A stretch of DNA of 64,000 nt, taken from Candidatus Poribacteria bacterium. GTDB lineage: Bacteria > Poribacteria > WGA-4E > WGA-3G. Under the pieces are notes generated by a model. That model worked only from the letters and a program-made list of their open reading frames with translations. It had not been told where the DNA came from and ran no database searches. A program made the position numbers and the translations under genes. Location of the stretch: positions 794,640-858,639 of the forward strand of contig OZ241845.1 of the NCBI GenBank assembly GCA_965202725.1. Direction: 5' to 3'. The first letter of the stretch is position 1. The number at the start of each line of letters is the position of its first letter. Below, one piece after another: positions 20,806-53,526 of this stretch.

Positions 20806-20874
20806 TTTGTAGCATAACCTGTTAGGTTGTGCTACCCATATTTAACGGAAAAAACAATACGTCTTAGGTAATGT

Positions 20875-23081: not shown

Positions 23082-23111
23082 TTGACATTCAGCAACACAT
23101 CGGGGTATAAT
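23082..23111 (+). promoter_or_regulatory. sigma70-like promoter (TTGACA, 18 bp, TATAAT) 7 bp upstream of the Rpn start; duplicated at 24288-24317
   Basis: Consensus -35 and -10 hexamers seen directly in the sequence. Confidence 0.5.
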
Positions 23112-23117
23112 CTGAAT

Positions 23118-24071: not shown

Positions 24072-24323
24072 AAAGTTCGAAGACGAATATATCTCACACC
24101 TGACAGAGAGATACCCTAAATTGTGCGATGAAAATTCCGAGCATCCTTTTCAGAGCCCCTTGGAATAGACAGAAGAAGAGTGGAAACAATTTGTCGATCG
24201 GCTTAGCGTATAGGCTCGCTGAAGCCTCATACGCTTACACCTCAGATTTTCTTTCTTTTGCGTTTCAAGACCCAAATTCTAAAAAAGTTGACATTCAGCA
24301 ACACATCGGGGTATAATCTGAAT

Positions 24324-25313
24324 ATGGAAGATAGCTTAAACTAACGTTCTGACGAATTACCACACAACCGATACGATATCGTCAGCAAACATATCTTTGG
24401 AACGTTCACCGAAGAATTATTGCGGGCCCTGACCAAAATCCCAGGGCTGAAGTTCCTTGAGCAGCTTGAGACTGAACTTCCCACCGTTGAGATACGCCGT
24501 ATGGACGTTTTGGCGAAGACGCTTGTTGAGGCACAAGAGGTTTTAGTGCATGTTGAATTCCAAGTCAGCAGGGAGGCGCGGGCGGAGATACTCCAACGCA
24601 AGGTTGGCTATTTCGGGCGATGCTTTGAAAGATATGGCTTGCCGATTTTGTCTTACACTATCTATCTGAGCCCGGATGCGGGTCAGAATGACCCCGGCGG
24701 GTATAGTCAAATGTTTCCCGGACACAAGGTTGAGATAGAGTATCAAGTGATCCGGCTCAGTGAACTTGAAGACCAGTCTATTTTTGAGACGGGGCAGACT
24801 TCCTTGATGGCATTTGCGCCCTTGATGCGTCCGCGAACGGGGGTATCCGCGGTTGAATGGGTTGAGGAATGTCATCAAATCACGGGTGCACTGTCGTTGG
24901 AACCAGAGCTTCGGAAAGATTTATTACTATGGCAATGGGTTTTGAGCGGTTTAATCGTTGACCCTGCCGACATCCAGCATCTGATGGAGGGACCCATGTT
25001 AGAATCATCCACTTACCGATATATCCTACAACAAGGCATAGAACAAGGCATAGAACAAGGCATAGAACAAGGCATAGAACAAGGCATAGAACAAGGCATA
25101 GAACAAGGCATAGAACAAGGCAAAAAACAGTACGCAGTTGAAGCAATTCTCACGGTGTTAGAGATACGATTCCAAATAGATGTTGCAGAAAAGCTAAAGC
25201 CTTTTCTCGGTGCCATTGATGATCTCCAACGTCTGGATCAGCTACACCGAGTCGCCACACAAGCATCAAGCATTGATGCCTTTACACACGCCCTCTTGAA
25301 CCTTGAAAACTGA
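24324..25313 (+). pseudogene. second Rpn-family copy, disrupted by a nonsense codon at codon 7 (MEDSLN*), (QGIE)7 repeat
   Basis: Same promoter and ATG as copy 1. TAA at 24342-24344. The listed ORF restarts at an internal TTG at 24420. Confidence 0.55.
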
Positions 25314-25369
25314 AAAATTGGAAGACCAATATATCCCACACCTGACAGAGAGATACCCTAAATTGTGCG

Positions 25370-25960
25370 ATGAAAATTCCGAGCATCCATATCATCGGCA
25401 ATCCGCCGCAGGCGGGAACGTATCTTTTGTGGATTCGTCTCAAAGAAGATGCGGTAGTACAATTCGGGCGGTTCAAGAATGGGAAACGTATTTCGCTACC
25501 TGCTGGTAATTATAGCTATGTAGGTTCTGCGCTTTCGGAAAAAGGGGCAACCTCACTCGCTCGACGGCTTATCAGACACACAACTCGGAGTGGTAATAAA
25601 CCGCCACACGCTATCCGGGAAGAAATGATCACTCGGTTCGCAGAATGTGGTTTGGGCCCCCCGGATCTACTACCGAAACACGGTAAAACTTTGCACTGGA
25701 ACGTCGATTTTCTGTTGGATCTACAATCGGCGGAGATCGTAAATATCCTTGCTATCCGTTCTCCTGAGCGTTTAGAAAATAGAATTGCCAAGCGGCTTGA
25801 ACAGGATCCGCGGACAGAAATTATCGAATCAGGGTTAGGAGCCAATGATGCCCCCGGTAGCACACATCTGTTACGCCTCCGATCACATAAAATATCGTGG
25901 GCATCTGTAGTGATGATTATCAGAGAAAAAGTCCTAAATCAAATTATGTACTACGAATAG
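25370..25960 (+). CDS. DUF123 / Uri-superfamily (GIY-YIG-like) putative endonuclease
   Basis: GTYLLWIRL...YSYVGSA...HWNVDFLL resembles the DUF123 pattern. The start codon lies inside the 3' tail of the duplicated unit. Confidence 0.4.
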   Translation: MKIPSIHIIGNPPQAGTYLLWIRLKEDAVVQFGRFKNGKRISLPAGNYSYVGSALSEKGATSLARRLIRHTTRSGNKPPHAIREEMITRFAECGLGPPDLLPKHGKTLHWNVDFLLDLQSAEIVNILAIRSPERLENRIAKRLEQDPRTEIIESGLGANDAPGSTHLLRLRSHKISWASVVMIIREKVLNQIMYYE

Positions 25961-33764: not shown

Positions 33765-34976
33765 ATGTCAGAACTGAAGAACCATAAAGTTACAATGCTC
33801 GGCACGGGACTCATCGGAATGTTTTATACGATGACCCTCCACAACCAACGTGGGACGGACCGAGTTCAAAGTGTCTATTCTCGACGCGAAGAACGCGCAA
33901 CGGCGTTTGCTAAAGAGTGGAACATCCCTCACGCAACAACCGATTTAGCAGCGGCTATAAACCACCCTGTGACGGACACTGTTGTCATCGGGCTACCCAA
34001 CAACTTACACCTGAGAGCCGTCGAACTGGCTGCGGCAGCTAGGAAAAGCATTCTCTGCACAAAACCGCTTGGACGTACTGCGGAAGAAGCGAAAGCGATG
34101 TTGGACATCGTTGAAAGCACAGGGGTGTTTGCGGGGTATCTTGAAGACCTCGTCTATCCTCCCAAAACCCTCAAAGCGTTGGAGTCTGTACAAAACGGGG
34201 CACTCGGTAAGATTTTGTGGGTGCGTTCCCGAGAGACGCATCCGGGGCCCCACAGCGACTGGTTCTGGGATCTCGAACAAGCGGGTGGCGGTGCCATCGT
34301 TGATATGGGATGCCACTGCATCGAGATCATCCGAAACTTTGTTGGGAAAAACAACAGGCCGGTTGAGGTGATGTGCTGGGCGGATACACTCGTGCATCCG
34401 ATTGATGCGGAAGATCACGGCATCGCACTCATCCGATTTGAGAGCGGAGCGATGGGCCAATTCGAGGTCGGCTGGGCGTTCCGCGGCGGCATGGATTTAC
34501 GCGATGAGGTCTCTGGTAGCGAGGGAACTATCTGGCTCAATCACTGGCTCCGCACAGGCTTTGAGATATTCACGGCTGTGGGACAAGGGGGCTATGTCGC
34601 TGAGAAAGCAGAAAGTGATACAGGGTGGCTCTTCCCCGTCGGTGATGAGATCGCAGAACTCGGCTATCGGGATATGTTCCTTGATATGTTCAACGCCATC
34701 GACGAAGGACGGGAGCCTATGGAAACCTTCTACGACGGTTATGTGGTCAACGCTATCATAGATGCCTGCTATAAATCGGCGAATTCCAAACAGTGGGAAT
34801 CGGTTGAAATTCAGGATTGGCGAGGCACGACAGAAGCCACCGGTACACAAGTCAGTGAATCGGAGGCTGATGAACGCTATGCCCACCTCAAAGACGAGCG
34901 CATGCCTGACGGCAGAATGAAGCGGATCTTCAGGGATCGAGACACCGGACAGATTATTGAACGCGTGGAAGATTAA
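33765..34976 (+). CDS. Gfo/Idh/MocA-family NAD(P)-dependent oxidoreductase
   Basis: N-terminal [13 protein letters not shown] Rossmann motif, and the EKP-like region (CTKPLG). 403 aa. Confidence 0.7.
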
Positions 34977-35175
34977 GAGAAGTAGGCGATTGCGGTGGGG
35001 TGGTCTTATAGAAACGCCACAAGCGTTGGACATCTTCGGTGTATCCCACCGCGACTGGTTAATTCTACAACAAAAGACAATTTTTGGCAACACCTTTTTT
35101 TGACGTTCGCACGAGCGTTACGGGGATGGACCCAAAGCCTAAAGGAAACCTGGGAGTGTGAGAGAAGTCCTTTCA

Positions 35176-35847
35176 TCATTCATATCCTGATGGCGGCGTA
35201 TAGCCTGCTGCGTGAAGCTCTTCCAAGAGTATCTGCCAGTAGGATAACGCCTGTTCTCTGCTGTCAAATGCAGGTGTACCTTCCCAAGGCGTTTTGGCGT
35301 TAATAAACTCGCTTTTCATTTTTTCTAACAGGATCGCCTGTTTTTCTACAGGCAGTGTCTTGAGCTGATTCGCAAGCACTAGATAGGCTTCTTTCTGGAG
35401 TCTCGCACCCTCTTCTCGGGCGATGCGTGCCGCTTCTATGAGTTCCTTTGCGGAATCGCTTTCTGCGGGTTCATGCGAAGGCTTTGGCTCGGATTCCTCT
35501 TGTTGATAATGTGTTGGCGGGTCGGTGTCCGACACCTCTTGTTCACTGGGCTCAAGCGTGTCTGTGATTCGTGTGTCCGTTGTTTCGGCAGGTGTTTCTA
35601 TTTCCACATCTTCCTTTTCTGGCGGGGATTGCCTATCAGCCGCGTTTCCATGTTTGACAGTGACGTGCCCCTCGACACTCCCGATGTCCGGTGGGCTATT
35701 GGGGCTGATCGGAGTTATCTGATAGATCGTCTTAGGTGTCGCGTTGATTCTTTTCTCAGCCGGACGCTGAACCCCGAAATACCATAGGGCGATCGCACCG
35801 ATTAAGGATACAAACAGTATGAGCGTGAAAGACGTTTTCATTTTCAA
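35176..35847 (-). CDS. hypothetical membrane-anchored/secreted protein with acidic Pro/Glu/Thr-rich low-complexity region
   Basis: N-terminal TM MKMKTSFTLILFVSLIGAIALWYF. Acidic PEKEDVEIETPAETTDT region. Confidence 0.4.
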   Translation of the reverse strand: MKMKTSFTLILFVSLIGAIALWYFGVQRPAEKRINATPKTIYQITPISPNSPPDIGSVEGHVTVKHGNAADRQSPPEKEDVEIETPAETTDTRITDTLEPSEQEVSDTDPPTHYQQEESEPKPSHEPAESDSAKELIEAARIAREEGARLQKEAYLVLANQLKTLPVEKQAILLEKMKSEFINAKTPWEGTPAFDSREQALSYWQILLEELHAAGYTPPSGYE

Positions 35848-36522
35848 TCTCCTTCGTAAAAGTTAAAACGTTAGCGGTCAGAGAGGGTATTCGTTTGGGG
35901 TGGCGGAACACGGAGATCTGTACGTGCCCCGCGATCTACCTTTGATCTTTCAATTGCAAGGTCCCGAAAGAAAACAAGGAAGGCACCAAAACAGACCGAA
36001 ATAACAAGTAAAATTATGACTATCTTGCGCCAGAAGTCCTTTTGCTGACGCTCACGGATTTTCCGTTCAAGGGTTTTCATAGATAATTTTTCCTGAGGGT
36101 AAACCCCGTCCATAAAAAAACGGGCGGGGTTCTCTTTCGGATAGCATCTACCTTAGCTACAGCTGCCGTTGTTATCATGAGGCTGACACTTTCAAAAATA
36201 TTGTCCCAAAAACACAAAAATGTGTCCAGAGAAAAAATCACACCCGCATACGCCCGCAAAACTGCGTTTTTGAAGGTTTCCGCCCAGTGTTCAGCGGCCT
36301 TTCGACTCAGCACCCCGTTTCTGACGGATATATAGGCTTTTGATTTTCGTTGTGCTGCTTTTTGCGGGTCCGTTGGGTATCCGTAGCCACCGCAAATCGT
36401 GTCAACCGACCCCAATCATCACGTCCATGGGGCGACTTTGGTTGTTTCCGGATAAAAACACCCGCAAGGTGTCCCCAGGGCGTTACAACGCATGACTCAC
36501 CGGCAACTTCGGTGCTTCTCTG

Positions 36523-36536
36523 TATATATATATATA
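36523..36536. repeat. (TA)7 dinucleotide microsatellite in a ~1-kb intergenic region
   Basis: tgTATATATATATATAca. Confidence 0.8.
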
Positions 36537-36965
36537 CACATTGAAAAAAAGTTTAGGGTGGTTTTCGTTTTTTTTTGCAAACGGGTGTCCGTCTTCGGCG
36601 AACCACTTTAAGCCAACCAAAATTTTCAAGGATTGCCGGAGGAAGGCAAACAGAAAGGTTCAGGTGATTTGCTTTCATGGCAATCCTTCTATATTCTGAT
36701 ATAAGGTGCTAACTTAAAAAGTTGAAAAATCTTGTGTTTTCGTTACAATTTAGGTGAGCTCAGTCATCCCGGTTCTGTGACTGAGCAGTGTCGATGGGTG
36801 CTCTTATCATCCTCGGCGCACCTCAAAAAATTTTAGAGGCAGCGATGTCCAAAAACGATTTTACCCGATATGGTAAAAATCACCAACAAAAAATATCGGA
36901 GGGGGTTATCGGACGCCGAAGAGCCGGATCACCCAATTGCCTTTCAATGAACTGTTAGTTTTTAA

Positions 36966-37094
36966 GGGTTTTCGAAAAAATAATGTTTTCGCCAAATTTT
37001 TGAGATACGCGTATGTGGTGCGCTATCTAACCCATACGATTCGCCTAAGTTCTCAATTATACAGCGGCATCATTTCATTACTTATAGCGAAAAC
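36966..37094. repeat. MITE-like ~130-bp dispersed element (copy 2)
   Basis: Aligns with 7580-7706. The internal REP hairpin is degenerate here. Confidence 0.6.
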
Positions 37095-37098
37095 CCTC

Positions 37099-37232
37099 AA
37101 AATAGGTGATCCTCTAAGTCGGGAGGTATTCCAAATGCGTAGAATGCTAACAGTCATCGCTTTCTTACTCTATCTGGGCGTAAGCTGTTTCGTTGCGTTT
37201 AAAACAGAGGGCCTCCATTAGCAAAATTGGAG
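37099..37232 (+). repeat. 'empty cassette' copy of the LamG locus: 5' 100 bp (RBS + signal peptide) fused directly to the 3' 33 bp (KTEGLH-stop + trailer)
   Basis: 37099-37198 equals 37371-37470 (2 mismatches). 37199-37231 equals 38144-38176 (1 mismatch). It encodes the 28-aa MRRMLTVIAFLLYLGVSCFVAFKTEGLH. Confidence 0.7.
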
Positions 37233-37406
37233 CTGGCTGACGCTTGCCTTGCTCAGTACAAGGGTTTTCCTGTACTCATATAAAAGAAACATAGTTGCCG
37301 AAAAAAGTTAGTGGCAAAATCTCACTTTATTTGATATAGTAGAAGAAAATCTTTTAAATTCGATACAAATAAAATAGGTGATCCTCTAAGTCGGGAGGTA
37401 TTCCAA

Positions 37407-38165
37407 ATGCGTAGAATGCTAACAGTCATCGCTTTCTTACTCTATCTGGGTGTAAGCTGTTTCGCTGCGTTCGAAGAGGAGACAGTATTATTATATCTCT
37501 TTGATGAAGAGACAGGCGATGAAGCGACAGACCTGTCCGAATTTGAGAATCATGGTGAAATCATTGATGCTGAATGGACAGAGGATGGGAAAAAAGGGGG
37601 CGCGCTCGTCTTTGATGGTACGAGCACTCTCATTGAAGTTCCACATCACGAGAGCCTCCTTCCCGGCGGCGATGAACTGACAATCGAAGCCTGGTTCAAG
37701 CCGAATTCGTTTCCGGCTGGCCATCCACCGATTGCAAGGAAAGGCTCTGTTGCTGAAAGTGGATGGGGTTTTGATACACCCGGGGGCCAAATTCGCGGAT
37801 TCGTCTACACCGCACCCGGGGCCGCCGCCGTTGCCCAAGGGACAACACAGCTGAAATTGGATACATGGCACCACGTCGCTATGGTGTACGACGGCACAGA
37901 GCTTCGCATCTATCTTGATGGTGAACAAGATGGACAAGCTGATCGAAAAGGAGACATCAACGAGAATCAAGCCTCGGTCTGGATTGGTAAGAAAGCAAAC
38001 GAAAGTGTCTGGCTTGATGGTACGCTTGATGAACTCCGTATTCTCAACATCGCACTTACCGAAGAACAGATTCAGGAAGATATGGAAGGCATCTCGTTTG
38101 CTGTCGAAGTTCCTGGAAAACTCACAACCACGTGGGGACGGATTAAAACGGAGGGCCTCCATTAG
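37407..38165 (+). CDS. secreted LamG-like jelly-roll domain protein with conserved C-terminal GKLTTTWG tail
   Basis: Signal peptide. WFKPN...WHHVAMVYDGTELRIYLDG is a LamG signature. C-terminus is PGKLTTTWGRIKTEGLH. Confidence 0.6.
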   Translation: MRRMLTVIAFLLYLGVSCFAAFEEETVLLYLFDEETGDEATDLSEFENHGEIIDAEWTEDGKKGGALVFDGTSTLIEVPHHESLLPGGDELTIEAWFKPNSFPAGHPPIARKGSVAESGWGFDTPGGQIRGFVYTAPGAAAVAQGTTQLKLDTWHHVAMVYDGTELRIYLDGEQDGQADRKGDINENQASVWIGKKANESVWLDGTLDELRILNIALTEEQIQEDMEGISFAVEVPGKLTTTWGRIKTEGLH

Positions 38166-38185
38166 CAAAATTGGAGAGGATAACA

Positions 38186-39037
38186 ATGGACACAAGTTGG
38201 CTTGAATACTGCGCGACTGACCGGCAACTCAAAGCGTTCAACGATACCGGTTACCTCGTCGTTGAGGACGCTATAAGTCATGACATGACAGATGCCTTGG
38301 AGGCAGTCGCAGATCGGCTTGATGCAGAAGAACGCGCGAAGACGGGACTGGCACCCCATGCCTTGATGTCAAAGTTCCGTACTGTCATCGAGGATGATAT
38401 CCTGCTGGATCTGCTCGATAATAAAAAGGTTTTCCCACTGCTTTGGGACATTCTCGGTTGGAACATCCAACTTTACATCTCACACCTTATCATGTATCCA
38501 CCCGAACCTCCCGATACTCCTCGCGTTGCGAAAGCCGCACATTGGCATCAGGACGGGGGAAGACCTGTGTCAGAGATGGAGCGACCCCATCCGCGCCTTT
38601 CATTGAAGGTGAGTTACTGGTTAAGTGATGTGACTGACCGAGATAACGGCGCAATGCGTCTGATTCCCGGGAGCCATAAACTCGACACCCGACCGCGCAA
38701 TACGGACGACAACCCGGATGGGGATCCAGAAGGTGCGATAGATCTGCTCGTCAAGCGGGGCACAGCTGTTCTTTTCGATAGACGGATGTGGCACTCACGC
38801 GGTTGGAATTTCTCCGATGTAACTCGGAAAGTCTTATTTATGGGGTATAGTTATCGTTGGCTACGGGGTTTAGATTATAATCTTATGCCACCGGAGCTTC
38901 TTGAGAAATGCGACCCGATTCGGCGGCAGCTCCTGGGGGATGGTGTAAACATTAAAGGCTGGTGGCAACCGACGGACGCTGATGTGCCTTTGAAAGCATG
39001 GATCGCAACACATCGCGGTGAGGCGTATTTACGGTAA
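38186..39037 (+). CDS. phytanoyl-CoA dioxygenase (PhyH)-family Fe(II)/2-oxoglutarate oxygenase
   Basis: HWHQDGG (H-x-D facial triad), WHSR, about 283 aa. GGAGAGG RBS. Confidence 0.65.
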   Translation: MDTSWLEYCATDRQLKAFNDTGYLVVEDAISHDMTDALEAVADRLDAEERAKTGLAPHALMSKFRTVIEDDILLDLLDNKKVFPLLWDILGWNIQLYISHLIMYPPEPPDTPRVAKAAHWHQDGGRPVSEMERPHPRLSLKVSYWLSDVTDRDNGAMRLIPGSHKLDTRPRNTDDNPDGDPEGAIDLLVKRGTAVLFDRRMWHSRGWNFSDVTRKVLFMGYSYRWLRGLDYNLMPPELLEKCDPIRRQLLGDGVNIKGWWQPTDADVPLKAWIATHRGEAYLR

Positions 39038-39116
39038 GGGCCGGTGGACTGCAAGCGGCAAAATGCCCTATTTCTTGGTAGGCGAGGTTAGGGAACCTCG
39101 CCTACCCAACAGAGCA

Positions 39117-40184
39117 TCACACCAGCGAGTCTTCCCCATCCGTCAACCACGCCAAATCAAACTTCGCAAATGACACCGTTTCATAAGCCTCGCTTTCACC
39201 GCATTCATAGAGGCAACATATCTCCATATCCGAAGCGATACAGAGGTCGGAATACGCCGCAGGCCCTGTATGTAAAACCTTACCACTGTTCCAACTTTGA
39301 CACTCATCATAACTAATGCGAATCGTCATCCGTTCACGATTCATGCTGGCAGGATTAGAGAACAAGACGCGGTTTTTGTCGTATCGGTTTTCATCCGTAT
39401 ACCGCACCGTGCTTGCCTGACAAATCGGCTCAACGAGGGCCTCGGCGTAACCGAATTCCGTGAATGTATCTCCGCCATCGCTACTTCGTGCATAAGCACG
39501 CCGTTTCGGTGCGACATAGTTCCGACAGTTAAAATAGAGGCCGCCATCCACCGTTTCAACGACCGCCGATTCATTCGTCCCGGGTTGCGCCTTACCCCCG
39601 ATCTTCCAAGTTTCGCCGCCGTCGTCGCTAACAATCAGGTGTGAGTAGCCGTATTGCGCGTAGTCTCGGTTGTTCCCAAGCACGTGATCACACGGAATCA
39701 CCAATCTGCCGTTTGCAAGTTGAATCCCGTGGCAGGGCCCCGTCGCGTACCACGTCCACGCTTCATCTTTCGTGGTCCCTGTGATTTCTCGCGGTTCCTC
39801 CCAAGTTTCGCCATCGTCATTGCTGGAGGTGACCCAGACGGTGCGCGGTGCTTCTCTCGCGACAATCTTTCCTTCCGCCCCGTTAGCGAGATTCTTACAA
39901 AAAAGGAGCCAGATTGTACCTGTGTCCCTCTCAACAACCGGTGCTGGGTTGCCGTCCGTATCGCTTCCAGTGGAGACAGCGATTTGCATCGGCTGCCAAC
40001 TCTCACCATTATCGAAACTCCGTTTCAAAACAATATCAATATCTCCTGAATCTCCGCCGCCTGTACGTCTGCCCTCGCAGAACGCCAACAGCGTTCCATC
40101 GTTAGATCGGACAAGCGCGGGAATCCGGAAGGTATGGTATCCTTCCGTTCCGGCTGTGAAAAGTGGACGTTCTGTTTTGTGCAT
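39117..40184 (-). CDS. exo-alpha-sialidase-like (GH33) BNR-repeat protein, no signal peptide
   Basis: N-terminal FRIP motif (YHTFRIPAL). Four Asp-boxes: SFDNGESW, SSNDDGETW, SDDGGETW, SSDGGDTF. Confidence 0.6.
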   Translation of the reverse strand: MHKTERPLFTAGTEGYHTFRIPALVRSNDGTLLAFCEGRRTGGGDSGDIDIVLKRSFDNGESWQPMQIAVSTGSDTDGNPAPVVERDTGTIWLLFCKNLANGAEGKIVAREAPRTVWVTSSNDDGETWEEPREITGTTKDEAWTWYATGPCHGIQLANGRLVIPCDHVLGNNRDYAQYGYSHLIVSDDGGETWKIGGKAQPGTNESAVVETVDGGLYFNCRNYVAPKRRAYARSSDGGDTFTEFGYAEALVEPICQASTVRYTDENRYDKNRVLFSNPASMNRERMTIRISYDECQSWNSGKVLHTGPAAYSDLCIASDMEICCLYECGESEAYETVSFAKFDLAWLTDGEDSLV

Positions 40185-40186
40185 GC

Positions 40187-40953
40187 TTACAAGCCCTCTC
40201 TAACCCGTGCCCACGTTGTTGCAAGTTTTCCGATGGGTTGGACATCTGCCGGATCGCCCATTACAAACGCATCAGGTTCTTTCTGATGATCGGAAAGTCG
40301 CAATCCATCAACGACACAATTCGTTGGAAATATTGGGTCAGGTGGGGAAGCGTTGTTAATCTCAAAGGTTTCCGCGAACACGGTGGGGCCTTTTTTGAAA
40401 TCGGCTTCCCCCGCAAGTTTGCCATCTAAATAGAGTTTTAATCCGTCGGGGCCCCACGTCCCCGCCATGTGGTGGTGTTCTCCGATTTTCCAGTCGAGGG
40501 GGGCACTGTTGGCATTATGCCACGACCCGCGCTTTTAATGCGCATCTGTGCGATTCCACCTGTATTAAACTGGAGAAATACGGCATCAGTTCCGCGTTTA
40601 TAGGTCATGAACATAAAGAGTTCACCCGCAACATCACTGGTATCTAATCCCATCGTTACCCACAACTCGACTGTCCCTTCGTCAAGGTTGATGAAGCGAT
40701 CCTCCACGGGGAAGTGAATAACATCCCCAACTGCTTTGCTGACAAAACCGTTGCCGTATTTACCGGGTTCAAAACTTCCGCCATCCACAGTGGCTCCCTC
40801 TTTTTCGACTTCCGCTTGGCTCTCCAACGCAGAAAAGAAGGTCTCCTCTGCTGTAGCAATAGAGACACATAACAGCGCGATTGTCAAAAGACACAACGTT
40901 TTCATGAAATATCCTCCGGTTTCGGTTAACTTACCTTGAATATAAAGATGCAT
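40187..40953 (-). pseudogene. LamG-like secreted protein with conserved C-terminal GKLATTW tail, split by a 1-nt frameshift near a C6/G6 homopolymer (40498-40503)
   Basis: Two ORFs (40438-40953 and 40187-40468) in frames differing by 1 nt. Together they give signal peptide + LamG body (..EHHHMAGTWGPDGLKLYLDG..) + tail IGKLATTWARVREGL. Confidence 0.5.
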
Positions 40954-40960
40954 AAGTTCG

Positions 40961-41809
40961 TTACGGATGTTCTACATCACCTACAGGTTTACTGACGGCT
41001 GATGGATGACTACCATTCGGCTTTTTGCATAGGGCATATACATAGGGTGAGGTCAACTGTTGATTCGGCACATGCATCGCCGCCAATAGATTTCCAATAA
41101 CAATATCTGTCAGGTTAATACATTTGCAAAGGATTTCGTGTCCCCATCTGCCAATGACAGCTCGCCAGGGTGAATAATCCACAACGCTTAACTTTAGAGC
41201 CCCGCCCGTGTATCCGTACTCCGTCACTTGAAAGCCAGTGTCCTGTAAGGCCGATGCGAGGCACTCCGGTGGAATTACGCTGTGGGTCGCCAGGAGCTTC
41301 GGACTCGCGACGCGGGCTATCGGTGTATACATACCTCGCAAATTCGGTGTTATTGTAAGCAATGTGCCTCCCGGTTTCAAGAGGTGGTACATCTCTTCCA
41401 AAATTGCTTGTGGTGTACTGAAATGTTCAATTAATCCCATTGAGTAGACGAAATCAAACGCAGCAGCCTGCTTTTTGACATACGTAAATAGGTCTTCGCA
41501 GATGATTGTGCCTTGCACGCCTGCAAGCGCAAGATTGCGTTCGGCGAGTTGACACCCCAATGCTGAAAAGTCAACGCCGTAGCAATTGCTTTCATAGTTG
41601 CGAGCGAGATACGGAAGCCACAACGAATCGGCACAGCCCACCTCAATCAGGGTTGGTTCTTTAAACCCGGCAAGTGCGAGATGAAACAGCTTGGCAAGTT
41701 GCCGGTTTGCCACGTAAGCCCACCGTAGATGTCGCACCTTATGCTGTTGCCCATCCCAGAGCGTCGTCCAGTAGGATTCATCCGTCAAAGGTGTCAGTTG
41801 TGCATCCAT
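40961..41809 (-). CDS. class I SAM-dependent methyltransferase
   Basis: LIEVGCADSLW motif I, acidic motif II (CYGVDFS). Start placed at MDAQLTPL, abutting the upstream gene's stop. Confidence 0.5.
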   Translation of the reverse strand: MDAQLTPLTDESYWTTLWDGQQHKVRHLRWAYVANRQLAKLFHLALAGFKEPTLIEVGCADSLWLPYLARNYESNCYGVDFSALGCQLAERNLALAGVQGTIICEDLFTYVKKQAAAFDFVYSMGLIEHFSTPQAILEEMYHLLKPGGTLLTITPNLRGMYTPIARVASPKLLATHSVIPPECLASALQDTGFQVTEYGYTGGALKLSVVDYSPWRAVIGRWGHEILCKCINLTDIVIGNLLAAMHVPNQQLTSPYVYALCKKPNGSHPSAVSKPVGDVEHP

Positions 41810-41810
41810 A

Positions 41811-43280
41811 CTAAGATTCCTCTGGCAGAACGGCATCATGTTCTAAGATAGGACAAAGATCGCAGAGTCGATCAGCGCAGTAATTTTTATAAAGTCGGAT
41901 AATACCTTGCTCAATTTTGGCTGTCGGTCTTAACTGCTGCATGCGTTGTGCGTCAGTGAAAACCTGTTTATTAATTTCGCTGATAATTTTATTTCCGGTT
42001 GACTTCGGAGAGGCACTGTAGAGTCTTAATATCGCTGCTTGGAGTTTCTGACTTTCTGCTTCAACTGCCCAAATATAAATAACCGGTAGTATCTTGTTGA
42101 CAATAATATCTGCCGCTCTCGTATTTCCAATCAGGGCTTCTTTCCGAGGGGTATTTATTCCGAAGCTAAAATGCGTTTCCCAGTAGCCTGTAGGTTTAAC
42201 TGTTAGTAGTTCACGGAGTTCTTTCCCAATAATTTGCAAGGACTTGCGCGTATCCGCAGCTGCAGCCTTTTCACACGTCGGTAGAAAGTACATCATTAGG
42301 CTGCCGTGTTGGCATCGATGGATTAACTGACCCATCGCGGCGATACGTCGGACAGGGTGATTAACAGGCCTGCTTGTAAAACTCCAACGCGCCTCTGTCA
42401 TACAGGGCGGCAGTTGAGCATACTCTGAAACACGCCACAATTCCTCTAATGCCCGGATATTTGGATCGTTTGTTAGCTCAGCTGGCGGCGGTTTCTCACG
42501 CTGTGATGGCAAAAGTCCTGCGACTCCAAAGAGAATCGCCTGAATCTCTAACTCGGATTTTTGATCGAAATCCGCGAATGGAACGTGTTGAGCCAACTCG
42601 CGCATCGCTTTGCTGTTGCGTGCATATCCGAGTGCCTCCATGATACCTTCATAGAGGAGTTGCTCGAAGTCGAGCCGCGTTCTCAACAGACGCATTGATT
42701 CGGCTTTTTCTAAGAAACGTTCACGTCCTAACGATTCAAAAACGCCTTTCAGGATAGCCATGTTGAGCGGCTTACCTGTAACCCGACAGATACCTTCTGC
42801 TGTTGCTGTATCTGCGGTGCCGTCATACAAATCACCGGTATCCACGGCAATCCATTTTAGGAGCTCTAAAGTTGAGATACGTTTGCCGTTCTGAAGTCGC
42901 GTCCGTAGATTGAAGTCGTCATTAAAAAACACGGCGTGCAGAATAACACGGTTGTATCTCGAATTGAGATGATGTTTATGCGCATACCACTCCGAAGATC
43001 GGACGTGGATTTCGACATCACCAATTTGGAGTTTACCATCAATCTCAATCTCGGCGTGCATGAAATCAGGACCTTCGTTATGGTTCCAGATACCCGGTTT
43101 TAGCACACGAATCGTCCGTCTATCAATTGCCTCCATATTGGTATCAAAGAACCGCTGCTCATGCCACAATTTCTGAACAAATGCCTCTTCCATTTTGTCC
43201 AGATCTGGTGTGTAAGCCTCATTAAGTTCCGTGAACTGTTTAAAGGTATCTTCAACTTTTGCTACATCATTCATGGACAT
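41811..43280 (-). CDS. DUF2851-family protein (function unknown)
   Basis: N-terminal EAFVQKLWHEQRFFD resembles the DUF2851 pattern L.Y.W....F. 489 aa. Confidence 0.45.
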   Translation of the reverse strand: MSMNDVAKVEDTFKQFTELNEAYTPDLDKMEEAFVQKLWHEQRFFDTNMEAIDRRTIRVLKPGIWNHNEGPDFMHAEIEIDGKLQIGDVEIHVRSSEWYAHKHHLNSRYNRVILHAVFFNDDFNLRTRLQNGKRISTLELLKWIAVDTGDLYDGTADTATAEGICRVTGKPLNMAILKGVFESLGRERFLEKAESMRLLRTRLDFEQLLYEGIMEALGYARNSKAMRELAQHVPFADFDQKSELEIQAILFGVAGLLPSQREKPPPAELTNDPNIRALEELWRVSEYAQLPPCMTEARWSFTSRPVNHPVRRIAAMGQLIHRCQHGSLMMYFLPTCEKAAAADTRKSLQIIGKELRELLTVKPTGYWETHFSFGINTPRKEALIGNTRAADIIVNKILPVIYIWAVEAESQKLQAAILRLYSASPKSTGNKIISEINKQVFTDAQRMQQLRPTAKIEQGIIRLYKNYCADRLCDLCPILEHDAVLPEES

Positions 43281-44658: not shown

Positions 44659-44770
44659 GTTTCTGCTACAGATACGTTTTGATGGGGTTTTGGAGAAAAA
44701 AACGAGGTTATTGTTACGGCAAAACACCCGCAACCTTCTGTGAAAAAACACGGGCATTCTGGTGGCACAA

Positions 44771-44865
44771 TCTAACATGTTATGCTACAAAAGGGGGGCC
44801 GCTGCCCGCGGTTCGCATTGGGCGATTTGTGGTTCTCCCATAGGTTTAGGAAACCTAACCCCTAC
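44771..44865. repeat. A-motif-like sequence (CTAACATGTTATGCTACAAAAGGGGGG) plus REP-like palindrome (TAGGTTTAGG-aaa-CCTAACCCCTAC)
   Basis: Same families as 3582-3695, degenerate. Confidence 0.5.
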
Positions 44866-45016: not shown

Positions 45017-48000
45017 TTAGTCTTGCGTTTTCAGATCGCCCCAGGTCGTCGTGAGCTTGCCCGCAGCGTTGACGTTGCCCCGAAGATGCGTGGTGCGCAA
45101 AGTGGTGCGCGTGCCATCCAAGGAGACGTCTTCTATCTGGTAATAGTAGACGAGGTTGGGTTTCGCAGAGGCATCCGTCCAGCTATAGACGTGCTTTTCA
45201 GCCGTTGTGCCGTGTCCGGGGATAATGCCTTTGCTGTTGACGACTGTGAACGTTCCGGTCTTTGTTTCACTGCGCAGTATATTGAAACCTGCGTTGTTGA
45301 GTTCGGACTCGGTGCTCCAGCGGATGACGACTTCGCCAGTGGCGGTGTCTCGTGCGGGTCGGAAGCTTGCCAGGGAGACGGGCAGGGGTCCCCCGCCGTG
45401 ATGCCCTGGTGTGCCGACATCGTTTCTATCGCCGTAATAGGTTGTTTCGCTATAGCCTTCTGCGGAGCGCCCCGTATTCTGTGCGGAGATCCACCCGCTC
45501 TGCATCATGCCATCAGCAGCCATGTCATCCTCGTATCTACGTATGATAGACGCGCGATGCCCATCGCTGTTGATACCCATCGGCAGGGCCCACTCGGGTG
45601 CATCGTTTGTGCGGCGATTCCCGTCGGTGTTGCCGACTTCGTCAACCACCTTTTTGTCCTTATCTGTGAGTTTCAGATAGAAACCCGTAGCACTCAGGAC
45701 TGTATCGGTGCGCGCTTCCATGTCCAGCTCGCTGCGATGTGATGTCCAGAGGTCTATCGTGCGAGTATCCGGGAAATGGTCTCTGCCTGAGTTAGAACCA
45801 CTGGTGGAAACAATCAATATCGTCTGATTCGGTGCGATGGTGACGGCACCGAGCGTGATCGTGGCGTTCTGACGGGCATCTAAGTTCTCATCCCGTGCGT
45901 TCTGAATTTCAAGTTGCCAGCCGTTCAGGTTCACACCCTGCGTCAGTGAAGAATTGTAAAGTTCTATCCACTGTGGGAGCGAACGTCTACCGGAGCCCGC
46001 ACTAAACATGATCTCAGAGATAGCGACCTCTGCATCAGAGAGATCCGCAACTTTCTCTTTGAGGGCATCGTTAGCATAGCCGGGGGTGCCTCCGTTTTCA
46101 TCGGTGTTGGCAGCCGTGCGGTCATAGCCGATCCCCGTGAAACCCACTTTCGCCCAGTGCTTCTCACCTATACCCGTGTTCTTACCATTCCGTTTATAGA
46201 CGAGACCCGCACGGAAGTCCTCATCGGCACCATCAATCACGTTGCCGTGCCCCGCAGCCCATAACCGAAGGGGCCACACCTCTGTGTCAAAACTACCATC
46301 CTTTTTCTCAGCGAAATAGGTGCCACCATGATCAACAATGTGCGTTGACTTGCCCTCTTTGTCATTCGCACTGCGAAGGATCAGGTTATATTTGCCACTA
46401 TTGGGTAAAACCAGGTTGCTATCTATGTAATACATGGATTGCACACCGCGTTTGACCCGGTCCGCCGCTGCCTTGTTAATCGCAACGCCCGCAGCCAGAT
46501 CATTCCCCGAAGCCGTCGGATCCGAGTTGGAAATCAACAAGATACCCCCCGCAGCGAGTTTCACGTTATCGTTATCCGGGAACGAGACCAACTGCGTCTC
46601 TTTCGCAGCACCATCCACCGACATCACGATATTCAGCTCCCACTTCCTGAGGTTCATCTCACCCGTCGTGGTGTTCCTGAGTTCAACCCAATCGTTAGCA
46701 TCGCTGCTGCTATTGCCTATCTCATTGATCAGCACCTCTTGCGATAGCACCGGCGGGTCTGGTCGAGCTGCCACAGGATACGTACCAGGTGTCCCAAGAC
46801 GATTCCCCGACAGATTCCGGCTCGGTCTCCCAGAAGCAACCCAAGTACCCGAACGCTCCGGATCCCCATCATCTTTCGCATGATCCGCATGCCCGGTATT
46901 ATCTTCATCGAACTGCTTCAGCTTCCGATACATAGACACAAGATCCACCGCATTAGCAGCAGTCGTCGCTTCAGAGCGACCCCCCTTGCTCGGGATAGCC
47001 CAGAAACCCGGATTACCCATATTACTCACAAGATCCACACGACCCGCTACTGACGAAGAAACCCCAGCTGGCTCCGGAACACCCCCTTGCGTAAAGTCAA
47101 GCATCCAACGCGACCCGTCAAAGATAATGGCCGAACCCGTCTTGTTGTAGACTTCAATCCACTGGCTATACTTAGAACGACCCCCTAAAGTAGCATCCTT
47201 GGCAGCCATGATCTCCGTGATCTTCAAATCACCCACCGCCGCACCCGCAGGCCCTTTAACGATAATCGTGCCACCATTCAGGAAGAAATCCTGGAGATCC
47301 ACCATATTCGAAACGGAGATGGTCTTTACGCCACTGGCAATACCCGTGTCGCTTGCCATCGCACCCGGATGCACAAGAACCCCAAAACCTTTGCTTGGAA
47401 TCACATTATCTATATCGGTTACAGTGAGAGTGAACATCAGCTGGGCATTACCCCCGCTGTTGGTCGCAGTGTAGGTATACGTAGTTGCTGCCATTGCAGA
47501 TCCTGTGGGAGTGCCACTCAGCAGCCGAGTCCCTGCAGTAAATGCGAGACCCGCAGGTAAGGCAGGGGTTAGGCTGTACGTGATACCCGTGCCAGTTGCC
47601 ATCGGAAGTTCTATAGCCCGCATTGCCACACCTACAGTCAATATCTGATTGGCAATCACCGTACCAGCAGCAAACGTAGGTGCCACAGGGGCGACAGGGG
47701 CTACAGTGATAGTGAACGTCTTGGTGTCACTCCCAGCACTGTTGGTCGCAGTGTAGGTAAAAGTAGTCGCCGACATCGCAGCAGCGGGAGTCCCACTCAG
47801 CAGCCGAGTCGTCGCATTAAACGCAAGACCATTCCAAGCGGCCGGTGCCAGCGAGTAAGTCACGCCAGTCCCCGTTGCCATCGGCAATGTTTCACTCACT
47901 GCCATACCCACAGTGTAGGTCTTAGCTGGAACAACTGCTAACACAGGAACACTTGTTACGGGATTGACAGTGAGAGTGAACGTCAGCTGGGCATTACCCC

Positions 48001-49870
48001 CGCTGTTTGTGGCAGTGTAGGTATACGTAGTTGCTGCCATTGCAGTTGTGGGGGTGCCACTCAGCATCCGGGTCGCTGTAGTAAACATGAGACCCGCAGG
48101 TAAGGCAGGGGTTAGACCGTAGGTGATACCCGTGCCAGTTGCCATCGGAAGTGTCAGAGCCGGCATTGCTACACCTACAGTCAACATCTGATTGGCAATG
48201 CTCGCATCAGTAGCAAACGTAGGTGCCACAGGGGCGACAGCGGCTACAGTGAGAGTGAAAGTCAGCTGGGCATTACCCCCGCTGTTTGTGGCAGTGTAGG
48301 TATACGTAGTTGCTGTCATTGCTGTTGTAGGGGTGCCACTCAGCAGCCGGGTCGCTGGCGTAAACGTCAGTCCCGCAGGTAAGGCAGGGGTTAGGCTGTA
48401 CGTGATACCCGTGCCAGTTGCCATCGGAAGTTCTATAGCCGGCATTGCTACACCTACAGTCAACATCTGATTGGCAATCACCGTACCAGCAGAAAACGTA
48501 GGTGCCACAGGGACAGGGGCTACAGTGATAGTGAACGTCAGCTGGGCACTGCCTCCGCTGTTGGTCGCAGTGTAGGTATAAGTAGTTGCTGTCGTCATTG
48601 CAGTTGTGGGGGTGCCACTCAGCACCCGGGTCGCTGGCGTAAACGCAAGACCCGCAGGTAAGGCAGGGGTTAGGCTGTAGGTGATACCCGCACCGCTCGC
48701 CACCGGAAGTGTCAGAGCCGGCATTGCCCTCCCTACAGTCAACATCTGATTGGCAATACTCGCATCACCAAACGTAGGCTGCGTCCGCCCCGGCATCGGC
48801 GTCCCAGACACAGCCGCAGAGGGCGTGCCTGCAGGCGTAGTGCCTGCGGCTGCTACACGGATACGCACGGTGATCGGAGTGCCAGCAGCGCCACGGATGA
48901 CCAACGGATAGACCGATACAGCCACCCAATTCACGCCGCCATCGGTGCTATACTCATACCCAGTCGCCGAACCGCCCGTCCAAGACACCGTTATCTTCCC
49001 TGGCCCAGGTTCCACAACAACGCCCGTCGGCATATCGCCGCTAGTGTCGCCACCAGTGTCGCCATTGCCATCGCCGTCATCGCCGCCGTTGCCATCGCCG
49101 TTAGTGTCGCCGTCCATGTCATCGTCAACAGTTGGAATTGGTGTAGGTGTCTGTGTGGGTGTCTGTAACGGCGGGCTCGAACCGTCCGCGTTGTTTATCC
49201 TTAGATAAAAAAAACGCATTACATCACCCTCGTACTCATAACTGCCGCCATCAACCGCGGTATAAGTAAAGTAAAAGTGGCCTGCTTCAGTAGGGGTGCC
49301 AGCAAGGGTCCGAGTCGATGCTGTGAATGTTAAGCCGGCGGGAAGGGCCCGAGTAGGGCTGCCGATGGCATTGTAAAGACTTACCGTCAGTGTATACGTC
49401 GTCGTATCGCCGTCCTCTTGCGTTGCCTCTGGCAAAACAAGACTGTACGCCTGCCCTACCCTCGCTGGACTGGGTGCCGGGATTCTACTCTCACTAAACA
49501 TAGGATCGGAATGTACAGTGAGATTAAACGTCAACGTAATATCGGTCTCACCCGGTGCTGAGGCAGTTACCGTATATGCTGTGGTTGGATAGCCTGCCCG
49601 GAAATGCCCCTGGATTCTAGGGTAATTCTGAACATTTGCAAGCCTCAAAGGAGCAGGTAAGGCGGGCGCTATCGAGAAAGTTATCCCGGCGGCACCCTCA
49701 GCGCGTGACAACGGATGGTCCGTGTTATCACCTTTAGCGAAGTCTAAATCAGGTTGTGTAGTAGGATTCCATGTAAGTGCAGCCTCCACGGCAGTTGGCA
49801 CCAGGAGCAAGGCAAATACTAACAGGACTACTAAACTTGCGAAAGAAAATGTTATTTTATTTGATAACAT
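45017..49870 (-). CDS. giant (1617 aa) secreted adhesin-like protein
   Basis: Signal peptide MLSNKITFSFASLVVLLVFALLLVPTAVEA. Acidic DG-rich tract. Five or more ~95-aa Ig-like 'putative Ig / dystroglycan-type' repeats (YSLTPALPAGLTFTPATRLLSGTPT). Three lamin-tail (LTD) domains (ITEIM..WIEVYN, INEIG..WVELRN, ISEIM..WIELYN). C-terminal beta-domain ends in AGKLTTTWGDLKTQD. The Ig repeats are also near-identical DNA repeats (~47.4-48.8 kb). Confidence 0.7.
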   Translation of the reverse strand: MLSNKITFSFASLVVLLVFALLLVPTAVEAALTWNPTTQPDLDFAKGDNTDHPLSRAEGAAGITFSIAPALPAPLRLANVQNYPRIQGHFRAGYPTTAYTVTASAPGETDITLTFNLTVHSDPMFSESRIPAPSPARVGQAYSLVLPEATQEDGDTTTYTLTVSLYNAIGSPTRALPAGLTFTASTRTLAGTPTEAGHFYFTYTAVDGGSYEYEGDVMRFFYLRINNADGSSPPLQTPTQTPTPIPTVDDDMDGDTNGDGNGGDDGDGNGDTGGDTSGDMPTGVVVEPGPGKITVSWTGGSATGYEYSTDGGVNWVAVSVYPLVIRGAAGTPITVRIRVAAAGTTPAGTPSAAVSGTPMPGRTQPTFGDASIANQMLTVGRAMPALTLPVASGAGITYSLTPALPAGLAFTPATRVLSGTPTTAMTTATTYTYTATNSGGSAQLTFTITVAPVPVAPTFSAGTVIANQMLTVGVAMPAIELPMATGTGITYSLTPALPAGLTFTPATRLLSGTPTTAMTATTYTYTATNSGGNAQLTFTLTVAAVAPVAPTFATDASIANQMLTVGVAMPALTLPMATGTGITYGLTPALPAGLMFTTATRMLSGTPTTAMAATTYTYTATNSGGNAQLTFTLTVNPVTSVPVLAVVPAKTYTVGMAVSETLPMATGTGVTYSLAPAAWNGLAFNATTRLLSGTPAAAMSATTFTYTATNSAGSDTKTFTITVAPVAPVAPTFAAGTVIANQILTVGVAMRAIELPMATGTGITYSLTPALPAGLAFTAGTRLLSGTPTGSAMAATTYTYTATNSGGNAQLMFTLTVTDIDNVIPSKGFGVLVHPGAMASDTGIASGVKTISVSNMVDLQDFFLNGGTIIVKGPAGAAVGDLKITEIMAAKDATLGGRSKYSQWIEVYNKTGSAIIFDGSRWMLDFTQGGVPEPAGVSSSVAGRVDLVSNMGNPGFWAIPSKGGRSEATTAANAVDLVSMYRKLKQFDEDNTGHADHAKDDGDPERSGTWVASGRPSRNLSGNRLGTPGTYPVAARPDPPVLSQEVLINEIGNSSSDANDWVELRNTTTGEMNLRKWELNIVMSVDGAAKETQLVSFPDNDNVKLAAGGILLISNSDPTASGNDLAAGVAINKAAADRVKRGVQSMYYIDSNLVLPNSGKYNLILRSANDKEGKSTHIVDHGGTYFAEKKDGSFDTEVWPLRLWAAGHGNVIDGADEDFRAGLVYKRNGKNTGIGEKHWAKVGFTGIGYDRTAANTDENGGTPGYANDALKEKVADLSDAEVAISEIMFSAGSGRRSLPQWIELYNSSLTQGVNLNGWQLEIQNARDENLDARQNATITLGAVTIAPNQTILIVSTSGSNSGRDHFPDTRTIDLWTSHRSELDMEARTDTVLSATGFYLKLTDKDKKVVDEVGNTDGNRRTNDAPEWALPMGINSDGHRASIIRRYEDDMAADGMMQSGWISAQNTGRSAEGYSETTYYGDRNDVGTPGHHGGGPLPVSLASFRPARDTATGEVVIRWSTESELNNAGFNILRSETKTGTFTVVNSKGIIPGHGTTAEKHVYSWTDASAKPNLVYYYQIEDVSLDGTRTTLRTTHLRGNVNAAGKLTTTWGDLKTQD

Positions 49871-50660: not shown

Positions 50661-50814
50661 CATGCTATTCTAAAATAGGTAGGCTGTGCCGTTGTAGCAT
50701 GGTTTCGTGTTAGGCTGTGCCTTACCCTTACCCCCCTACCCCCCGCAAGCAGGCGGGATGCTATTCTTGTAGCATGGTTTCGTGTTAGGCTGTGCCTTAA
50801 GTTGTAGCAAGGTT
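50661..50814. repeat. A-motif cluster: degenerate A, A, B (reverse), A, partial A
   Basis: TTGTAGCATGGTTTCGTGTTAGGCTGTGCC at 50692-50721 and 50767-50796. Between them lies the reverse complement of the B motif. The cluster is immediately 3' of mod1. Confidence 0.75.
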
Positions 50815-50834
50815 CTTGACTGCATAGTTCGGCA

Positions 50835-52511
50835 TCACTCTGTAACAACCGTCTCCTCACCGAGCATATCAATAATCTTCACAGCAACCCGAGCATCAGG
50901 ACGCGGCAGCGATACCGTGTATTCTCCCTCAACAAAGTCAGCCTTTTTCTGTGGAACATCGCTTTCAACGATGTCGAAACGCTCGCCCGTATAATCGGTA
51001 TCGATTAGCACACAATCAACTTGTGCACGGAAGTCCTCAATGTGTTCGCCGAAGAGGGTGCGGTCTATGTCCAAACGCCCCAAGATAGTTGGACTCATAT
51101 AATCTTCAATAGTGATCGTAACGCTCTCTCCGTTTCTTTCAAAGCTAACATCTGCTTCGGCAGCCGCATAAGTAGTCACACCATCACGTTGAATATCGCG
51201 CACGATGAATTTGTTTATCCCGCGTCGCTGGTTTTCTTTAACAAGTTCTTCCTGAATTCCGATCTCGCTCCCATTGCATAGCAGCGTGATGTTGCGTGCC
51301 TCATCTGGGCGATTTTGGAGTTCGTCTTTAATAAGTTGAACATCCAATCGATTGAACGGTCTTGTAAGGTCAATAATTTTGACGAGTGTCCCGTCCAGTG
51401 TGCCGTCAAAAAACGCTTCTCGCCTGTCCGTTTGCACGCCATATTTTTTGATAACAATATTCCTTCGTTCTAAATGTGTGCTGGCATCGTAGTTATTGAC
51501 ACGATAGTGGGCAATGCCGCGCCGCATCTCTGGTAACTTCTGTAGTCTTTTGAGTGTCGTCTGGATGGCCCCTTTGTTGATATCCGCAGCAATCCAGCGC
51601 CTACCGAGTTCCTCCGCTATGACTGCAGTGGTTCCGCTACCAATAAAACAATCAAGAACGATAGAATCCTTGTTGCTCGAGGCTTTAAGAATAGGTTCTA
51701 TTAAATTTTTAGGTTTTTGAGTAGGAAAGTCGGAACGTTCCCGATCCATAGTGTTAAGCGAAGGTTGAATAATCACATCATCAGGAGTTTTACCTGTTGG
51801 CATATCCTTTCCTGCTTGTCCTCCCCTGTTGTATCGCCACTCGGTCATTCCGCTTTCAAAAGGCACTAGAATTTCATCTCGATTGAAAATGTATTTGTCC
51901 GGCGATTTGGTATACCAAAAAATAGTCTCATGTGCATGGGCTAATCTCTTTTTTCCACGAGAGGCATTTTTGTAGTACCAAATAATTTCATTCTGGAAGA
52001 GGTCTTTGTCAAATATTTCGTCCATGAGTACTTTCAGATAGTGACTTTTTTCATGGTTGCAATGCAGGTAAATTGAACCTTTATCTGATAACAATTCATA
52101 CATCAAAATGAGTCGTTCATACATAAACTGCAAATAGTTGTCATTTGCCCAAATATCAGTGTATTGTGTTTGCTCGACAAAAGAGGGACCTTCGCCTGCT
52201 AATTCTTTCTCTTCACCGCGCAGTTTTACCTTTCGCACATAGTCTGCTCCACTGTCAAACGGTGGATCGATATAAATGAGGTCTATTTTACCACGAAACC
52301 CTTGCACAAGCAATGTGGAGAGAATCTCTTTGTTGTCTCCGTGAAAAAGGAGATTGGGCCCCTCCTTGAATCTGTCGTAAGTCGGTTCCTTTTCTGGGTT
52401 TTCTATGTTGTAGGTTTCGACTAATTGTGCAGGATAGTTGCTGATTGTGTCAATCGGGCGTTTGCCGACCCAATGCAACATCGGTCTGCCTTTAACGGGT
52501 TTGATTTTCAT
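50835..52511 (-). CDS. Type III restriction-modification methyltransferase Mod, paralogue 1 (beta-class N6A/N4C MTase) with ~230-aa conserved C-terminal extension
   Basis: Motif IV IDLIYIDPPF near the N-terminus, a variable middle target-recognition region, motif X PTQKP, motif I VLDCFIGSGTTAV, then a long C-terminal domain shared by all copies. Start placed at MKIKPVKG (ATG 52511). The listed ORF starts 15 nt upstream. Confidence 0.6.
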   Translation of the reverse strand: MKIKPVKGRPMLHWVGKRPIDTISNYPAQLVETYNIENPEKEPTYDRFKEGPNLLFHGDNKEILSTLLVQGFRGKIDLIYIDPPFDSGADYVRKVKLRGEEKELAGEGPSFVEQTQYTDIWANDNYLQFMYERLILMYELLSDKGSIYLHCNHEKSHYLKVLMDEIFDKDLFQNEIIWYYKNASRGKKRLAHAHETIFWYTKSPDKYIFNRDEILVPFESGMTEWRYNRGGQAGKDMPTGKTPDDVIIQPSLNTMDRERSDFPTQKPKNLIEPILKASSNKDSIVLDCFIGSGTTAVIAEELGRRWIAADINKGAIQTTLKRLQKLPEMRRGIAHYRVNNYDASTHLERRNIVIKKYGVQTDRREAFFDGTLDGTLVKIIDLTRPFNRLDVQLIKDELQNRPDEARNITLLCNGSEIGIQEELVKENQRRGINKFIVRDIQRDGVTTYAAAEADVSFERNGESVTITIEDYMSPTILGRLDIDRTLFGEHIEDFRAQVDCVLIDTDYTGERFDIVESDVPQKKADFVEGEYTVSLPRPDARVAVKIIDMLGEETVVTE

Positions 52512-53224: not shown

Positions 53225-53282
53225 ATTTTTTCTCCTTTTTGTGTAGTTGTCCTAATATGCATTGTGCCTTTCGCAACGTTAA

Positions 53283-53408: not shown

Positions 53409-53526
53409 GTTCCGTTCCCCGTAATAAACAAGCGGACATCCGCGCTTAATTCCGCACGTACCTTTCAGTGTGTCTTCTCGTAACAGAGAAACCACCTCAT
53501 CAGGTTCTTGACTGAAGAGTTCGGCA

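Follow-up and report, generated by a model that had tools for sequence, protein, structure and literature searches.

A short copy of a LamG gene in Poribacteria is probably a relic of duplication and deletion

Directly upstream of an intact LamG gene in the stretch of DNA analysed here (64 kb in total, hereafter the window) lies a short copy, which possesses both ends of the gene without its interior, and the question is whether this copy is a frame for passenger domains, as the initial annotation proposed, a small gene in its own right, or the scar of a rearrangement. The intact gene (37407-38165, plus strand) encodes a 252-aa protein with a signal peptide, a jelly roll matching Laminin_G_3 (Pfam PF13385, E=1e-30) and an unstructured C-terminal tail, GKLTTTWGRIKTEGLH. 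In the AlphaFold2 model (mean pLDDT 86, pTM 0.80), residues ~25-226 are confidently predicted as the jelly roll, and residues 232-252 have a pLDDT of <50. The protein has 118 homologs, all named ones of which are from Candidatus Poribacteria, and its closest relative shares 90-91% protein identity.

The first part of the short copy (37099-37199, plus strand) is 98% identical to 37371-37471 over 101 nt, with two mismatches (C/T at 37179 and T/C at 37193), and corresponds to LamG -37 to +64, that is, a 37-nt leader with the ribosome-binding site GGGAGG, followed by 64 nt of coding sequence with the ATG and 21 signal-peptide codons. The elements originally ascribed to this 5' segment (ribosome-binding site, start codon and signal peptide) are all there; the promoter-like site at 37311-37340, however, is outside the copied DNA. 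The second part (37200-37232, plus strand), which has one mismatch to 38144-38176, carries the last six codons of LamG, its stop and 14 nt of the LamG-PhyH spacer, including a portion of the PhyH ribosome-binding region, and the alignment of 37199-37232 with 38143-38176 gives 97% identity (33/34 nt, the mismatch being A/G). Altogether, three substitutions in 134 nt separate the short copy from the LamG gene, one of them non-synonymous (A to V), and the two are thus not identical duplicates. Searched across the 64 kb, a 60-nt probe and a 26-nt probe found just these two places each (0 matches expected in shuffles), and the repeat is confirmed as real and far above chance expectation.

These identities confirm that the 'empty' copy is the LamG locus minus its interior, the missing part (37472-38143) being 672 nt, or 224 codons, and not 673 nt. 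At the junction (37199/37200), which reads gcg-ttt-aaaac base by base, the two parts overlap by a single T and are fused in frame, and the 28-aa peptide that had been noticed before is indeed encoded. Its 28-codon ORF (37136-37221, plus strand), which joins the signal peptide to KTEGLH and is translated as MRRMLTVIAFLLYLGVSCFVAFKTEGLH up to the stop, is read here as an accidental relic. As for the 3' segment, KTEGLH, the stop and the 14-nt trailer are present as described, but the 'tag' is lost, because the short ORF keeps just the variable tail, K-TEGLH, and the conserved GKLTTTWGRI falls inside the deleted part.

Each edge of the short copy borders different identifiable DNA, namely a MITE-like repeat, a relic of a sigma-factor gene and the native LamG upstream region. 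Further to the left, homology to the orthologous loci of other Poribacteria, such as L008 and L016, ends at 34996, inside the MocA terminator hairpin, which is complete in L008 and L016. In place of the second arm of this hairpin stands a lineage-specific island (34997-36959), which consists of AT-rich non-coding DNA and minus-strand ORFan ORFs (35176-35847, 35871-36113, and 36077-36415). Searches of the island by blastn and tblastx against 63 loci gave no similarity, and no Pfam or NCBIfam matches were found for its ORFs. The largest ORF of the island, with 222 aa (35176-35847, minus strand), which has a hydrophobic segment near its N-terminus and a middle part rich in proline and acidic residues, found only itself among 5.8 billion proteins and is either a true ORFan or no gene. 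A stretch at 36393-36513 weakly matches an IS edge in L006 (72% identity), with no transposase remnant behind the match. As well, 36726-36765 was considered as a third and older remnant of the LamG upstream region, but the match is not significant, as 20 of 300 shuffles score equally.

The island is followed by a 143-bp MITE-like dispersed repeat (36960-37102, plus strand) with 15-nt terminal inverted repeats, TTTTAAGGGTTTTCG and CGAAAACCCTCAAAA, the right end of which adjoins the start of the LamG 5' segment and overlaps it by AAAA. The element is possibly TA-flanked. A second copy at 7578-7709 (77% identity) holds a nested REP-like palindrome, GGGTTGGGAAACCCAACCCC. Among 63 loci of other Poribacteria, no copy of the MITE-like repeat turned up, and an exact DNA probe for it was unmatched in metagenome_contigs. 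On the other side of the short copy, a 38-nt relic of a sigma-70-family gene (37230-37267, minus strand) corresponds to the region-4 helix-turn-helix and is 87% identical to L008 3418-3455 and L016 3654-3691, its translation being KTLVLSKASVSQLQ versus ENLALSKARVSQLLKQ. The gene is intact on the minus strand of both relatives, and that of L008 (3358-4095) matches TIGR02937 (sigma70-ECF) and Pfam Sigma70_r4. Read on the plus strand, the relic holds a terminator-like hairpin (37247-37263).

Next to the relic begins the native LamG upstream region (37268-37406, plus strand), with the promoter-like site mentioned above (TG-extended -10), located by a promoter scan, and the ribosome-binding site. 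It is 85% identical to L008 5860-6000 and 81% identical to L011 5862-5960, and can be aligned, more weakly, to L006 and L007. Therefore four junctions between unrelated pieces lie within about 300 bp, at the MITE-like end (37098-37102), at 37199/37200, where the sigma-gene relic sets in (from 37233) and where the native upstream region sets in (from 37268), with an overlap of 0-3 nt each. Rfam gave no credible match in 34900-38300.

Other repeats are also present in the window. Within each of two direct repeats of ~1.2 kb (23000-24200 and 24206-25400, 96-99% identity) lies a tandem array with a 12-nt unit, AACAAGGCATAG, present in about 5 versus about 8 copies. At 20622-20804, a 61-nt unit is repeated three times head-to-tail with 97-100% identity and adjoins a REP-like inverted repeat, in which 20804-20836 pairs with 44761-44793. 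Three tandem repeats of ~2.6 kb (50690-58000, 75-99% identity) are separated by REP-like elements, TTGTAGCATGGTTTCGTGTTAGGCTGTG, which also occur inverted at 3631-3658 and 7928-7955.

The LamG gene itself belongs to a conserved neighbourhood, in which a MocA-type oxidoreductase, LamG, a PhyH dioxygenase, a BNR sialidase, a second LamG on the opposite strand and a methyltransferase follow one another. The left anchor is the GFO/IDH/MocA oxidoreductase gene (33765-34976, plus strand), assigned by Pfam on its orthologs, along which relatives are collinear with 84-89% nt identity to 34996, and the right anchor is the PhyH-family dioxygenase gene (38186-39037, plus strand), assigned by Pfam PF05721 and synteny. 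The second LamG gene (40187-40953, minus strand) is broken into two ORFs by a frameshift near 40527, where a G-run reads GGG versus GGGG in L001, for which a pseudogene, a slippage-prone site and a consensus error are three readings.

In each of 48 orthologous Poribacteria LamG loci, we searched for additional matches to the 5' and 3' ends of that locus's LamG gene, the window serving as positive control, and an empty or short LamG copy was found in none of them (0/48). The spacer between MocA and LamG varies in length, from about 110-166 bp in L002, L009, L010 and L032 to 2-2.7 kb in the window, L008, L011 and L016. This spacer occupies 34977-37406 in the window, 3281-6000 in L008, 3518-6000 in L016, 4018-6000 in L011 and 4300-6000 in L006. 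In L008 and L016 it contains a gene for a sigma-70/ECF-type factor and a gene of unknown function (276 aa), and in L006 an IS transposase (DDE_Tnp_1) is located directly upstream of LamG. Judging from these sequence comparisons, the MocA-LamG spacer is an insertion hot spot, hypervariable and repeatedly rearranged in relatives.

The LamG gene also duplicates at this site, since 9 of the 48 relatives (L018, L020, L026, L029, L030, L031, L033, L042, and L044) carry two full-length tandem LamG paralogs between MocA and PhyH, the additional gene lying about 75-160 bp before the LamG match. The two paralogs, A and B, share 70-75% nt identity over their whole length and 87-100% in the last ~50 nt, which suggests strong constraint or gene conversion at the tail-coding end. 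They are ordinary paralogs of one domain, and not different passengers in a common frame.

Probably, LamG was duplicated recently, in this lineage only, within the rearrangement-prone spacer, and deletions then left the short copy as a relic without function. Because the leader and the 14-nt spacer are included, the short copy is a DNA duplicate of this genome's own LamG beside PhyH, and because it is 98% identical to the neighbouring LamG versus 86% between 37099-37199 and the L008 LamG 5' end, the duplication is placed after the split from L008. The earlier suggestion of a duplication and a subsequent deletion is thereby supported, as the copy derives from a nearby intact parent including non-coding flanks (98% over 101 nt and 33/34 nt), is absent from the 48 orthologous loci and shows illegitimate junctions to unrelated DNA at all four breakpoints.

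The repeat, its uniqueness, the nature of every flanking piece, the spacer variation and the tandem LamG pairs of relatives are observed; the order of events, their mechanism and the lack of function are what we infer here. The ancestor would have been similar to L008, with MocA, its terminator, the sigma-factor gene and a gene X (both on the minus strand), the LamG upstream region, LamG and PhyH. A tandem duplication of the block that begins within the sigma-factor gene and ends 14 nt beyond the LamG stop would have created a junction between LamG+14 and the sigma-gene interior, which is today 37232|37233. Subsequently, deletions with 0-3 nt of microhomology may have cleared most of the duplicated material. 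One of them would have removed 224 codons of the upstream LamG copy at the 1-nt T overlap, with a one-in-three chance of staying in frame; another would have removed the sigma-factor gene and gene X between the copies, so that the 38-nt relic stayed (junction 37267|37268). A third would have taken all DNA that preceded -37 in the upstream copy, with its endpoint precisely at the MITE-like terminus, which would match the pattern expected of a transposon-associated adjacent deletion. Alternatively, one repair event with multiple template switches could equally well have given the same mosaic.

Several points speak against the relic. An in-frame deletion with an intact ribosome-binding site, start and stop is also the look of a selected small ORF, and the 5' breakpoint looks tidy, near the signal-peptide cleavage region. 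As well, the proposed history takes several events, and the closest relative available for comparison is just 90-91% identical in protein. Two other origins were rejected. Descent from an old LamG-A paralog disagrees with the 98% identity to the genome's own LamG, with the presence of its own leader and PhyH-side spacer, and with the missing residual homology past the breakpoints; a cDNA-like origin disagrees with a copy that begins ~20 nt after the likely start of transcription and stops inside the LamG-PhyH spacer. If the short copy is a relic, the 28-codon ORF is not to be annotated as a gene, and the scar otherwise matters little. The locus shows fast remodelling of the MocA-LamG spacer in sponge-associated Poribacteria, with the MITE-like repeat as the marker of one rearrangement breakpoint.

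The motif that the short copy has lost is found elsewhere in the window and in relatives. GKL(T/A)TTW(G/A)x(I/L/V)(K/R), followed by 2-6 polar, variable residues, ends signal-peptide proteins with different passengers, which are three LamG types and a 1617-aa He_PIG/LTD protein. In the window it is present at 38114-38165 (plus strand), 40187-40230 (minus strand), 45017-45060 (minus strand) and ~16691 (minus strand), of which the second site ends the frameshifted LamG. Most LamG genes in L001-L048 end in this tail (GKLTTTWGRIK in the orthologs), and the distant LamG homologs P0113 and P0117 also carry it. In the 1617-aa protein (45017-49870, minus strand), it comes after a different C-terminal domain. 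The ORF of this protein also contains internal repeats of ~279 nt at 47400-48770 (4-6 copies, 74-93% identity), which are its He_PIG Ig-like domains.

Since residues 232-252 have a pLDDT of <50 in the AlphaFold2 model, the tail is predicted to be appended and not a part of the fold, and since the same motif ends different passengers, a C-terminal tag, as first proposed, is a fair idea for the full-length proteins, though not for the empty copy, which is without the conserved motif. The tails matched nothing in Pfam or NCBIfam, where LamG matches Laminin_G_3 only and the 1617-aa protein matches He_PIG, LTD and I-set and no sorting-domain model, and a literature search on Poribacteria LamG or a C-terminal sorting motif found nothing relevant. 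The GKLTTTWGxIK tail may be an undescribed C-terminal sorting or anchoring signal of Poribacteria. A reading that combines such a signal with a site of LamG turnover, at which the short ORF is kept as a membrane peptide or export decoy, is doubtful as a whole. If true, the 'signal peptide plus tag frame' would be real only in a loose, protein-level sense. The conserved tail motif by itself could indicate that this uncultivated phylum has a sorting pathway not yet recognised.

It is unlikely that the short ORF has been co-opted for a function of its own, be it to encode a hydrophobic membrane peptide of 28 aa or to act as a leader ORF that affects LamG expression from upstream. Its ribosome-binding site, ATG, frame and stop are all intact, and the peptide is predicted to be a single hydrophobic helix, similar to the signal-peptide helix in the AlphaFold2 model. 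Nevertheless, its absence from 48/48 orthologous loci shows that it is not a conserved regulatory design, and one of the three substitutions changes an amino acid (A to V). The terminator-like hairpin at 37247-37263, which follows the ORF ahead of the LamG promoter-like site and counts in favour of a function, is itself a remnant of the sigma-factor gene. Moreover, the copy lacks the promoter-like site, the nearest upstream one being about 390 nt away, and the RNA of the region does not fold better than shuffled sequence (z = -0.2). A leader-peptide or uORF attenuator is recognized by a conserved short ORF with alternative RNA structures in relatives, and this pattern was not found here.

An assembly artefact, in which the short copy exists in no cell and results from reads or strain variants that were wrongly joined during metagenome assembly, is unlikely as well. 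The source is a metagenome-assembled 4.6-Mb contig, for which there is no independent assembly of the same species to confirm the arrangement, and the neighbouring LamG paralog is 1 nt short in its G-run, possibly through a consensus error. Against an artefact, three positions distinguish the copies, and unique single-copy DNA lies on both sides (the island and the MITE-like repeat to the left, the sigma-gene relic and the native upstream region to the right), where collapsed or duplicated reads would be expected to repeat the flanks too. The junctions also resemble biological deletion breakpoints, with intact counterpart genes in relatives.

The weakest candidate, now largely refuted and very improbable, is the one which the initial annotation had offered first for the locus, a conserved expression-and-targeting frame in which the ribosome-binding site, signal peptide and tag take different passengers by recombination and the empty copy is an acceptor or excision product. 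It has in its favour that Poribacteria proteins with different passengers, including the three LamG types and the 1617-aa protein, have a signal peptide and the C-terminal GKLTTTWGxIK tail in common, and that the tandem LamG paralogs resemble each other most over their last ~50 nt (87-100%). Further copies of the two segments, however, did not turn up. There is no third copy of either within the 64-kb window, and exact probes were unmatched in two public collections, namely a 27-nt 5' probe in genome_contigs (species-representative genomes) and a 26-nt 3' probe in JGI metagenome_contigs, both being weak negatives, as the source genome is evidently outside both collections. With the 94-aa ORF that contains the short ORF as query, no protein cluster representative with this signal peptide was found, and the conserved motif is missing from the empty copy. 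The junction overlap is 1 nt, a recombination site is absent, attC-like inverted repeats do not flank it, and no recombinase, integrase or reverse-transcriptase domain was found in the immediate neighbours scanned, which included MocA, PhyH, the BNR sialidase, the methyltransferase and the island ORFs 35176-35847 and 36077-36415. The paralogs of relatives, finally, are ordinary whole-length LamG duplicates.

Among known systems, the tail of the full-length proteins, to which alone the comparison applies since the motif is lost from the short copy, is similar to PEP-CTERM, LPXTG and the T9SS C-terminal domain, in which signal-peptide proteins with varied passengers likewise carry a short conserved motif at their very C-terminal end. 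As in these sorting signals, the GKLTTTWGxIK tail is predicted to be outside the folded domain; unlike them, it has no transmembrane segment and no beta-sandwich of ~80 aa.

The short copy itself bears a superficial likeness to Neisseria pilE/pilS, Borrelia vls, Rhs/CDI orphan toxin modules and integron gene cassettes, in which a partial copy lies beside an expressed gene and shares its ends. However, silent-cassette and integron systems have several partial copies with variable interiors, whereas there is one copy here with no interior, and exactly two copies in 64 kb, the second without interior, do not make a pilE/pilS-type locus. Those systems also rely on conserved recombination sequences (attC, VENN/PxxxxDPxGL junctions) and on dedicated or RecA-dependent exchange, while no recombination site is present here and no recombinase was found in the scanned neighbours. 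For an integron in particular, inverted repeats bounding the interior or the short copy are absent, and no recombinase or integrase domain was detected in the eight neighbouring ORFs scanned (35176-41839). Diversity-generating retroelements combine a reverse transcriptase with two repeats that lie at the 3' end of the target gene and differ by adenine-specific mismatches; here the three mismatches read C/T, T/C and A/G, only the 5' end and the last 33 nt are repeated, and the same eight ORFs contain no reverse-transcriptase domain.

The closest likeness is to relics left by tandem or segmental duplication and microhomology deletion, which show high identity to an adjacent parent including its non-coding flanks, breakpoints with 0-3 nt of overlap, absence from orthologous loci and a variable spacer with IS- or MITE-like DNA. 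Compared with the usual relics of this kind, the deletion here happens to keep the reading frame and joins signal peptide and tail neatly, and the junctions are denser, with at least four in about 300 bp, for which a single template-switching repair is possible. Duplication followed by illegitimate (microhomology) deletion is the ordinary route of pseudogene decay in bacteria.
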